A stretch of DNA of 64,000 bases from the NCBI GenBank assembly GCA_964559555.1, contig CAZLHM010000001.1:49230-113229 (forward strand), read 5' to 3'. The stretch comes from an uncultured Candidatus Bathyarchaeia archaeon (GTDB lineage: Archaea > Thermoproteota > Bathyarchaeia > 40CM-2-53-6). How positions within the stretch are numbered: position 1 is the first letter of the stretch; every line of letters starts with the position of its first letter. Both the position numbers and the translations under genes were made by a program. The notes under the pieces were generated by a model that saw only the letters and a program-made list of their open reading frames with translations, searched no databases and was not told where the DNA came from. This document shows, one piece after another, positions 46,536-48,818 of this stretch.

Positions 46536-47010
46536 CGTCTCCAATCTCAGATTGGATGCGCACTTACTCCTTCGCCCTTGGATTCTGAGACGATTAAGGA
46601 CAATCCGGCGCAACATTTCAGTGTTGTCGTCCCGAGTTTCATGAGTTGTATGATATCGTGTTGCCGTGACCTGTGGCGGACGACTGAGGCTTCGAGCGTT
46701 TTCCTCTAGGAGATTATTCCGAAGCCATAGAACCTTGTCACAAGCCTTGAGGTTGTGTCTTCAATTGAACCCGTTTCGACAATGAGCCGAGGCTGGTGAT
46801 CTAGAGTCTGAACTGAGCACGATTCGTCAGACTAGCCGAGAATCCGAAGAACTTCTCCATGCTCACTCTGGAACCGGATAGAACTCTTAGTGGGCGACAG
46901 CGAGGAACAATACCTTCGAGCTATCACCTGCTGGGGAGGACGACAACTCACTGTCCCAGCCCCCACACCTTATCAGCTACTCAAGGTTAGGTTGTTGGCG
47001 TGGCAATTGC

Positions 47011-47018
47011 TTATAGGA
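47011..47018 (+). promoter_or_regulatory. Candidate TATA box (TTATAGGA) for the DarT-macro gene
   Basis: Centred ~30 nt upstream of the ATG at 47045, consistent with a leaderless or short-leader archaeal transcript. This also argues against the GTG-47000 start. Confidence 0.3.
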
Positions 47019-47044
47019 ATGTAGAACCCGACTTCGGTGGTGAC

Positions 47045-48223
47045 ATGTCGCTTCAGTCGTCCCAACGTCGTTCAACAGTTAGAGAACTGTACTACATCAC
47101 TCACATCAAGAACTTGCCCTCGATACTCCGCAGAGGTATCTTATGCCACCGGAAGATGGTTGCAGAAGGAATCCCCTTCGAACCGATTTATGACGAAGAG
47201 ATCGTCTCAAATCGAAAGAACATCGCAGCGCCAAATGGCGAAGACTTGTGGAGCTTCGCGAACTTCTATTTTCAGCCTCGTAACCCGATGCTTTATCGTG
47301 TTCTGCTTCATAGACCTCGAGAGGATATCGCCATCCTAGGCGTTAGACGAGACATTCTCGGTCTCTCCAAAGTCTACGTCACAGACGGGAACGCTGCGAG
47401 CTCGAATTCAAAGATACTGCCTGTAAACCCCAAGGCCATTGAGCAAATCGCAGCCCAGACGGATGAGGTCTGGTGGAACTATGTGGATGGCAAGAGAAGA
47501 ATCATGGCAGAGTGCTTGGTTGCGGATGAGGTGCCTCCCGAACATCTCCAAGCTGTGTATGTCCCAAATCATCAAGGAGCGGAGAGAGCGAGAACCTTGG
47601 TTGGCGGGCCTATCATACCCGTCATACCACAACCAGAATGGTTCTTCCTTCCATCTAAGGAGATTCGGCTCACTCCGACGCTCTCCGTAAGGGAGGGCGA
47701 CATGTTCTTCTCTGGTGCGCAAACACTCACGATAAGTGTCAATTGCGTTGGGAAGATGGGCAAAGGCCTTGCATCGAGAGCAAAATACCTGTTCCCTGAT
47801 GTGTACGTATATTATGATGACCTTTGTCGAAGAAGGGCCCTGAAGTTGGGCAAACCGTACCTCTACAGACGGGATATCTCACTGGATCTCCAGCTCGCAG
47901 ACGAGCCCACAAGGTTGCCTGATGCCAATGCTGGAACATGGTTTCTGCTCTTTCCTACCAAGAATCACTGGAGAGACAGAGCTGACATACACGGAATCGA
48001 AAAGGGATTAGGATTGACCGCAAGAGACTACAGGGATATGGGGATCAAGTCACTGGCAGTTCCGGCACTAGGATGCGGACTCGGCGCACTTGATTGGAAG
48101 GATGTGGGCCCGATTCTCTGCAAGTATTTGTCCCGCTTAGAAATCCCGACGTGGATATATCTGCCTGCGGAGAGACGAATATCTGAGGAGTTCCTCACTC
48201 CCGAGTACCTTCTCCGACGATGA
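47045..48223 (+). CDS. Fusion protein: DarT-like ssDNA thymidine ADP-ribosyltransferase domain (DUF4433) + C-terminal TARG1/DarG-like macro domain
   Basis: N-terminal ELYYITHIKNLPSILRRGIL, FYFQPRNPMLYRV, DGNAASSNS and the catalytic Glu in RIMAECLVADEVPPEHLQAVYV (codon 47510-47512) match DarT/DUF4433. The C-terminus has ISVNCVGKMGKGLASRAKYLFPDV ... FPTKNHWRDRADIHGIEKGLGLTARDYRDMGIKSLAVPALGCGLGALDW, a macro-domain pattern of the TARG1/DarG type. An alternative GTG start at 47000 adds 15 aa. Confidence 0.8.
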   Translation: MSLQSSQRRSTVRELYYITHIKNLPSILRRGILCHRKMVAEGIPFEPIYDEEIVSNRKNIAAPNGEDLWSFANFYFQPRNPMLYRVLLHRPREDIAILGVRRDILGLSKVYVTDGNAASSNSKILPVNPKAIEQIAAQTDEVWWNYVDGKRRIMAECLVADEVPPEHLQAVYVPNHQGAERARTLVGGPIIPVIPQPEWFFLPSKEIRLTPTLSVREGDMFFSGAQTLTISVNCVGKMGKGLASRAKYLFPDVYVYYDDLCRRRALKLGKPYLYRRDISLDLQLADEPTRLPDANAGTWFLLFPTKNHWRDRADIHGIEKGLGLTARDYRDMGIKSLAVPALGCGLGALDWKDVGPILCKYLSRLEIPTWIYLPAERRISEEFLTPEYLLRR

Positions 48224-48554
48224 CGACAATAGACGTTTCCGGCCACAACAGCTAGTGTTGGGCGAGGCAGACGAGGTGCAGGGGAAAGAACTCTACGTAC
48301 AATTGGGCCGTTGCAATGCGACGACGATCAGAGGAAGTCTCAATTGGCGCAATTTCGTTTCTTGCATCTATTGACTGTCTCAGGGTGTCCGTCCAATTCT
48401 CCTGCAAGGAATCTCTAGAGTTGCAGAGAGTTTCAAGCCAATTGATCTCGGACACCTTGTGAGCATGTGCCAGCTGCGACGAATCGACATTTGGCAAGTG
48501 TGGATCTGTGACATGCATGTCATGGATTGCCCGGCGTCTAACCCAGTTACGACC

Positions 48555-48577
48555 AAGAGTGGTGAGTGCGGGAGGGG
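48555..48577. repeat. tRNA-proximal copy (attR-like) of the direct repeat
   Basis: aagagtggtgagtgcgggagggg. Positions 48567-48577 are the 3' acceptor strand and discriminator of the tRNA, and 48555-48566 is the 3' trailer. Confidence 0.5.
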
Positions 48578-48694
48578 GGATTCGAACCCCCGAAGGCCTA
48601 CGCCATAGGCTCCTGAAGCTTGGGTAGCGTTTGTCGCTTCTACCCCTTAGACCTGGTTCCCGCCAGCTGATGAGCTGGGCTCGGGTACCCCCGC
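48567..48694 (-). tRNA. tRNA-Leu(CAG), class II, 128-nt gene containing two predicted non-canonical BHB introns (mature ~85 nt)
   Basis: Minus-strand reading gives acceptor GCGGGGG/CTCCCGC with U8 A9, T-arm GGGGG-TTCGAAT-CCCCC, discriminator A and no encoded CCA. Predicted intron 1 (+48657-48679) removes a bulge-helix-loop to give D-arm CCCGAGCCAGGTCTAAGGGG, near-identical to crenarchaeal tRNA-Leu. Predicted intron 2 (+48620-48639, position 29/30) is flanked by a 4-bp helix GGGT/ACCC and 3-nt bulges, giving anticodon arm TAGGC-TTCAGGA-GCCTA with anticodon CAG at +48613-48615. Long variable arm GCCTATGGCGTAGGC. Confidence 0.7.
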
Positions 48695-48818
48695 TGATTT
48701 CGGCTAGTTCGAGCACACCTAGTTAATCCTTACGCGAACTTGACAACTCGATTCCAGTCAATCATCAGAACGCCTATCAGATTGGCTTAGGATTAGCGCC
48801 CCTCGCGGAGATGTCCCG

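Follow-up and report, generated by a model that had tools for sequence, protein, structure and literature searches.

The minus strand of the window, by which we mean the whole 64,000-nucleotide stretch of DNA that we analyzed, carries from position 48694 down to 48567 what we judge, with a probability of roughly 0.9, to be a genuine tRNA-Leu(CAG) gene of a Bathyarchaeia host that is interrupted by two introns, the splicing being predicted from sequence. Excision of gene positions 16-38 (23 nt) and 56-75 (20 nt) from the 128-nt gene leaves an 85-nt class-II product. The assignment draws on what can be observed directly, namely the anatomy of the gene, the uniqueness of the solution, and the conservation and covariation in 51 distinct orthologs.

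Anatomy of the gene and tests of the cloverleaf

The acceptor stem has 7 bp (GCGGGGG/CTCCCGC) with one G-U pair, and the T-arm has 5 bp (GGGGG/TTCGAAT/CCCCC) with GTTCGAATC in its loop. The first half of the spliced product reads GCGGGGG-UA-CCCG-AGCCAGGUCUA-AGGG-G-UAGGC-UUCAGGA-GCCUA, and the second half, after GCCUA, reads UGGCGUAGGCCUUC-GGGGG-UUCGAAU-CCCCC-CUCCCGC-A. Direct reading of this sequence locates U8, A14, G15 with C48, G18-G19, A21, U33, G37, and A73, and removal of the two elements restores the anticodon stem as TAGGC/GCCTA. The 14-nt variable region with its 3-bp GGC/GCC stem, A73, and the anticodon CAG are all as expected of a class-II tRNA-Leu. No CCA is encoded after A73 in the window. 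The sequence-only reading from which we started had located the gene at exactly the coordinates given in the table, to which we add the minus strand as a refinement, and it had described a 128-nt gene with a standard 7/5 acceptor/T-arm architecture, which we find as well. Its two inserted elements are also there as described: 23 nt in the D-loop with a 6-bp stem, a 4-nt loop, a CCCG/CGGG helix of 4 bp, and a 3-nt bulge, and 20 nt flanked by a GGGT/ACCC helix that carries 3-nt bulges on both sides.

Features of the tRNA-Leu(CAG) gene and its upstream region, in window coordinates
Feature	Gene positions	Window	Strand	Sequence	Remarks
Whole tRNA-Leu(CAG) gene	1-128	48567..48694	-		128 nt, from G1 to discriminator A73
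Exon 1	1-15	48680..48694	-	GCGGGGGTACCCGAG	Acceptor 5' strand, U8, A9, D-stem 5' strand, A14, G15
Intron 1	16-38	48657..48679	-	CCCAGCTCATCAGCTGGCGGGAA	23 nt; tRNA position 15/16; relaxed HBh'
Exon 2	39-55	48640..48656	-	CCAGGTCTAAGGGGTAG	Rest of D-loop with G18 and G19, D-stem 3' strand, G26, anticodon-stem positions 27-29
Intron 2	56-75	48620..48639	-	AAGCGACAAACGCTACCCAA	20 nt; tRNA position 29/30; strict hBHBh'
Exon 3	76-128	48567..48619	-		Anticodon-stem positions 30-31, anticodon loop TTCAGGA, 3' anticodon stem, long variable arm (GGC/GTAG/GCC), T-arm, acceptor 3' strand, A73
Anticodon CAG	80-82	48613..48615	-	CAG	
Conserved upstream block		48719..48738	-	TTCGCGTAAGGATTAACTAG	-44 to -25 from the mature 5' end; TTCGCAAAATCGTTAACTAG in orthologs

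ARAGORN calls the spliced 85-mer tRNA-Leu(cag). The program is permissive once a strong acceptor stem and T-arm are present: it returned some tRNA call for 17,627 of 227,633 arbitrary double deletions of the gene (7.7%), so we dropped its call on the spliced product as proof and applied a strict cloverleaf test instead. This test demands U8, a D-stem, a D-loop of the form A14...GG...A21, and a 5-bp anticodon stem, as well as Y32-U33-R37 and a legal variable region. Only 15 of 392,212 distinct double-deletion products pass it, and none of the 2,448 single deletions of the gene does. In all 15, the second deletion is exactly 56-75 and the anticodon is CAG, the products differing only in what is removed from the D-loop. 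The tRNA fold therefore leaves a single solution for the isotype, which the sequence-only reading had also given as Leu(CAG), for the anticodon, and for the boundaries of intron 2; the cloverleaf alone does not settle where intron 1 begins and ends.

Searching the window on both strands for a T-arm closed by a 7-bp acceptor stem brought up one site only, that of the tRNA-Leu(CAG) gene; this search is weak when taken alone, as it gave about 12 false positives over 590 kb of related loci. Folded with ViennaRNA, the spliced RNA does not adopt a cloverleaf as its minimum-energy structure (z-score only -1.3), and this fold was left out of the evidence.

On the unspliced DNA, ARAGORN found no tRNA anywhere in the window, whatever the settings, also with introns allowed and with lowered thresholds. 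Rfam gave no match in the window at the gathering score, the genomic sequence falling short of RF00005, and at E values up to 10 it returned only fragments of the T-arm, assigned to unrelated families. The earlier reading had named the failure of a covariance model to find a tRNA here as grounds for giving up the gene. Taken literally, that outcome is what Rfam delivers, but the gene is not refuted by it, because the tRNA model lacks states that could take up introns at 15/16 and 29/30, and a miss is to be expected. A 154-aa ORF runs across the tRNA gene (window 48252-48716, minus strand), and the ENA assembly of this same contig lists it among the protein genes (L002 2434-2898). No Pfam family matches the ORF, and it is almost certainly a spurious call over an unrecognised tRNA.

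Splicing motifs and the boundaries of intron 1

We scanned the gene together with 30 nt of each flank (188 nt) for the bulge-helix-bulge (BHB) geometry, defined as a 4-bp helix with two 3-nt bulges on opposite strands and checked on the canonical 37/38 case (PMC4090602). In the canonical 37/38 intron, the anticodon's first two nucleotides lie within the central helix (PMC4090602), which means that either cut comes behind the second nucleotide of its bulge. The two best motifs in the scanned region are 15|16...38|39 and 55|56...75|76, in agreement with the two introns, in the D-loop and at 29/30, of the sequence-only reading; the first motif is relaxed and the second strict.

In intron 2, the central helix is formed by G50-G51-G52-U53 with A70-C71-C72-C73 (GGGT/ACCC), all four pairs being Watson-Crick, and is flanked by the bulges A54-G55|A56 and A74-A75|G76. 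The inner helix has 4 bp (AGCG/CGCU) and closes a loop of ACAAA, and the outer helix has 3 bp, pairing A47-A48-G49 with C77-U78-U79. The strict hBHBh' class calls for at least two Watson-Crick pairs in both outer helices, with cleavage after the second bulge nucleotide, and intron 2 conforms to this definition (PMC7714728). In intron 1, the central helix pairs C10-C11-C12-G13 with C33-G34-G35-G36 (CCCG/CGGG), again with four Watson-Crick pairs, between the bulges A14-G15|C16 and A37-A38|C39. Its inner hairpin consists of 6 bp (CCAGCT/AGCTGG) around the 4-nt loop CATC, and it lacks an exon-side helix. Intron 1 thus is of the relaxed HBh' class, an accepted class for BHB-type introns.

ViennaRNA folds of the whole precursor and of local segments recovered the helix, the 3-nt bulge, and the hairpin at both sites. 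Per 188 nt, shuffled sequence yields about 0.27 motifs of the strict kind and about 2.1 that consist of a helix plus a 4-bp hairpin. By itself, the BHB scan is therefore not significant against shuffled sequence, and we used it only for fixing the cut positions. The weight of the BHB motifs lies in the coincidence of the two best of them with the excisions that the cloverleaf demands.

For intron 1, the choice of register needs closer attention. The gene and isotype could be as we describe them and intron 1 be cut elsewhere in the D-loop, at 16/17 or 17/17a or as a deletion of 22-24 nt, in which case the mature D-loop would differ by one to a few nucleotides. Fifteen D-loop deletions give an acceptable cloverleaf, and the motif has no outer helix. 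In the window itself, removal of 16-38, 17-39, or 18-40 leaves an identical product. The three products differ in orthologs that have G rather than C at position 16, so the choice of register matters there. RNAalifold, run on the orthologs with no structure imposed, recovered the acceptor stem, the T-arm, the intron-1 hairpin, and both central helices, and it favored two alternative local pairings, a continuous 7-bp helix at intron 2 and, in the G16 orthologs, a G16-C33 register that would suit a shifted cut. In these orthologs (columns 13-16 and 33 of alignment A1), G16-C33 competes with G13-C33, and the alternative would leave only a 3-bp helix between the bulges.

We place intron 1 at 15/16 because the BHB cleavage rule puts the cuts after G15 and A38. 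Among the candidate cuts, 15|16 together with 38|39 is the only pair in which both sites follow the second nucleotide of a bulge of 3 nt next to a helix of 4 bp, and that central helix is Watson-Crick paired in 51 of 51 distinct sequences. The BHB register alone gives the same mature D-loop, AGCCAGGTCTA, in the window and in all orthologs, whereas excision of 18-40 gives differing products. In addition, C16 of the window cannot form the alternative pair, so that only the BHB register is open to it. Taken together, these observations make a shifted cut in the D-loop quite improbable, and we retain the boundaries at 15/16 in what follows.

Orthologs, genomic setting, and host

A pattern search of one genome per GTDB species gave four loci, all in Bathyarchaeia metagenome-assembled genomes (MAGs) and each with both introns. 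For the JGI metagenomes we used a looser pattern that left the region from AAGGGG to the anticodon loop free over 5-35 nt, so that a copy lacking intron 2 would have matched. This search returned 101 loci with every match 71-74 nt long, which places intron 2 in each of them; no copy without it appeared among these loci. The two-intron template fits all of the complete metagenome copies (72/72). With the window included, we assembled 77 full-length genes, 51 of them distinct, and both introns are at the same positions in every one. We regard this single layout in 77 full-length orthologs as the strongest argument against a chance arrangement. We found no intron-free relative to serve as a control, either with the metagenome pattern or among the LarA-linked loci.

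The exons hardly vary, and the intron loops drift. Intron 1 is 23 nt long in all 77 genes and occurs in 29 sequence variants; intron 2 ranges from 20 to 23 nt, in 36 variants. In the alignment of the 51 distinct sequences, variation affects 22 of the 43 intron positions as against 4 of the 85 exon positions, or more fairly 4 of about 55, given that some 30 exon positions were fixed by the search pattern. Within exon 1, G6 alone varies (G6A), turning the pair G6-U67 into A6-U67. Both central helices are paired in all 51 sequences. Changes in the intron strand of the intron 2 central helix are exclusively pair-preserving transitions, from G-U to G-C and from U-G to U-A, and pair 20-29 of the intron-1 hairpin shows a compensatory change from G-C to A-U in 9 of the 51. 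The inner helix of intron 2 is conserved but does not covary, its fourth pair being broken in 11/51.

Two further observations concern copy number and relatives. One MAG, CAYGWT01, carries the gene with different intron variants on two contigs (L003 and L005), which suggests two gene copies or a strain-mixed bin. An intron-free tRNA-Leu(caa) with the same 25-nt 3' end, comprising the T-arm and acceptor strand, lies at L117 4412-4497 (minus strand), on the 158-kb IMG/VR contig IMGVR_UViG_3300009703_000007, which is classed as viral.

Upstream of the gene, the block TTCGC..AA...TTAACTAG is kept at -44 to -25 in all lineages, their leaders being otherwise divergent. From its position, this block is probably a BRE/TATA-like archaeal promoter from which transcription would begin with a leader of a few nucleotides. 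The tRNA gene is divergently paired with a LarA-like gene, which is followed by Nramp and MgtE genes. This LarA-Nramp-MgtE synteny is kept in the clade down to about 65% LarA identity and is lost for LarA homologs at 42-46% identity; in one lineage with 66% LarA identity, no tRNA adjoins LarA.

The 3' side of the tRNA gene differs at each locus that we examined, with a DarT-Macro gene in the window, an acetyltransferase at L115, and small DUF5678 genes at L116. The region at the 3' end of the tRNA gene (window 48224-48566, L115, and L116) looks like a synteny breakpoint or insertion hotspot. In the window, the gene directly 3' of the tRNA (47000-48223, plus strand) encodes a single 407-aa protein in which a DarT ssDNA ADP-ribosyltransferase domain (144 bits) is joined by a Macro domain at the C terminus (25.3 bits, cutoff 22). 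DarTG systems have their toxin and antitoxin on two distinct proteins. In most orthologs, A73 is immediately followed by an encoded CCA. The window (48558-48566, minus strand) and five other loci (L011, L041, L088, L097, and L107) have a trailer CTCACCACTC... in place of CCA, and the loci that share this trailer have introns and leaders of different variants. We considered the shared trailer CTCACCACT as the mark of an integrated element and rejected it, as the window contains no second tRNA 3' end and there is no downstream homology.

These features bear on whether the locus could be a decayed pseudogene or tRNA-derived remnant, such as a leftover integration site, in which the insertions are never removed. 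The silence of standard tools, the variable 3' side with its DarT-Macro gene, and the lack of an encoded CCA in the window, unlike in most orthologs, would all fit such a remnant. Decay is at odds, however, with exons that are near-invariant in 51 distinct sequences while the intron loops drift, and with two splicing helices that are both maintained through changes that are compensatory or pair-preserving. The promoter-like block is likewise conserved, no copy with these exons lacks intron 2 in the 101 metagenome loci, and the window contains no second copy of the tRNA 3' end. We consider a remnant very improbable and continue to treat the locus as a working tRNA-Leu(CAG) gene.

The third alternative, another isotype or a single long intron (Ala(ggc), Gly(gcc), or Leu(tag) with one intron of 37-49 nt), arises from the behavior of ARAGORN on the orthologous loci. 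With introns allowed (-i), the program made 60 calls in loci L003-L107, all of them on the tRNA-Leu(CAG) gene, naming it Leu(cag), Leu(tag), Ala(ggc), or Gly(gcc), each time with a single spurious intron of 37-49 nt; it called no other tRNA in 590 kb of orthologous loci. We give this alternative next to no chance of being right, since the calls conflict for genes with identical exons, no single deletion yields a strict cloverleaf, the long variable arm and A73 are ignored, and no BHB lies at the proposed boundaries. That automated callers could be misled had been foreseen by the sequence-only reading, and its expectation is borne out by the silence of ARAGORN on the window and the inconsistent isotypes on orthologs. 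Its further suggestion that the hairpin mimics a tRNA-Sec D-arm did not hold up. A tRNA-Sec has a 6-bp D-stem with a 4-nt loop, a 9/4 or 8/5 acceptor/T architecture, and the anticodon UCA; our gene has a 7/5 architecture and the anticodon CAG, and ARAGORN made no Sec call on the window or the orthologs.

As judged by sequence relationships, the host is archaeal and belongs to Bathyarchaeia; the window itself comes from a metagenome contig. The best named relatives of the aldehyde:ferredoxin oxidoreductase encoded in the window, at 83% identity, are from Candidatus Bathyarchaeia/Bathyarchaeota. The TACK/Thermoproteota origin proposed earlier can thus be narrowed to Bathyarchaeia, rather than a classical crenarchaeote.

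Proposed maturation and relation to known tRNA introns

We infer transcription, cleavage, ligation, and the acting enzymes from established archaeal tRNA splicing (PMC4090602, PMC4033280). The gene's own promoter would give rise to a pre-tRNA of about 130 nt, whose two introns would be spliced out by proteins. In this precursor, the 3' end of intron 1 (CGGG) would pair with the 5' strand of the D-stem (CCCG), and the 3' end of intron 2 (ACCC) with a GGGU made up of D-stem positions 24-25, G26, and U27 of the anticodon stem, and each of these pairings would supply a bulge-helix-bulge with its 4-bp central helix. The two motifs use different nucleotides and are compatible with each other. As long as either intron is in place, the D-arm could not form. 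EndA, the archaeal splicing endonuclease, is predicted to cut after G15, A38, G55, and A75, each the second nucleotide of a 3-nt bulge, and an RtcB-type ligase would join the three exons. For the 15/16 cut, the expected junction between exon 1 and exon 2 is GAGCCAGG. Following ligation, the D-stem and the anticodon stem TAGGC/GCCTA would form to give the 85-nt class-II tRNA, whose ends would be trimmed by RNase P and RNase Z. CCA would be added post-transcriptionally, as it is not encoded in the window.

Because intron 1 lacks an outer helix, the responsible endonuclease is predicted to be of broad specificity. Relaxed motifs are cut by (αβ)2 or ε2 endonucleases, or by those with the crenarchaeal-type specific loop. 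No EndA is evident among the annotated ORFs of the window.

The gene is of a known kind, a multi-intron archaeal tRNA, and involves no new mechanism. There is good documentation of multiple non-canonical BHB/HBh' introns in Thermoproteales, Nanoarchaeota, Korarchaeum, Caldiarchaeum, and ARMAN archaea. As in the multi-intron tRNAs of Thermoproteales/Crenarchaeota, the introns are short and non-canonical, with BHB or relaxed HBh'/hBH motifs and two or three to a gene (PMC4090602, PMC4033280); the tRNA-Pro(UGG) of Pyrobaculum, for example, has introns at 25/26, 37/38, and 56/57 (PMC4090602, PMC4033280). The present host differs from the Thermoproteales in that it is a member of Bathyarchaeia from environmental metagenomes rather than a cultured hyperthermophile. 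Caldiarchaeum subterraneum also has multi-intron tRNAs, including tRNA-Leu(UAA) (PMC3293823); compared by description only, that tRNA differs from ours in isoacceptor and in intron positions. The canonical 37/38 strict hBHBh' intron shares the 4-bp helix, the two 3-nt bulges, and the cut after the second bulge nucleotide, but neither of our introns is at 37/38 and intron 1 is without an exon-side helix. Position 29/30 is explicitly among the known insertion sites (PMC4090602). Reviews name 20/21, 22/23, 25/26, and similar sites and treat D-arm introns in general terms only, and we did not find 15/16 among the intron positions catalogued in the reviews that we examined. The literature that we searched yielded no paper on tRNA introns in Bathyarchaeia.

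A joint reading, which we offer tentatively and with the odds against it, is that multi-intron tRNAs, including the 15/16 site, are fixed across Bathyarchaeia rather than being a speciality of hyperthermophilic Thermoproteales, and that the introns act as a block on the D-arm. Their retention may be due to this joint effect, the D-arm being unable to fold before both are gone, and such a block may serve as a maturation checkpoint or as protection of the gene against integrating elements.

If this is true, standard pipelines would systematically under-count or misname tRNAs in the abundant Bathyarchaeia of sediments. The tRNA inventories and completeness estimates of Bathyarchaeia MAGs may be wrong where no intron-aware archaeal search is used, because ARAGORN and Rfam miss the gene and ARAGORN misnames its orthologs. 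The finding extends multi-intron tRNAs, with a relaxed D-loop motif among them, to an entire clade within Bathyarchaeia, and this in turn predicts a broad-specificity splicing endonuclease in the class. Its main value lies in annotation and in this extension of multi-intron tRNAs to a Bathyarchaeia clade.
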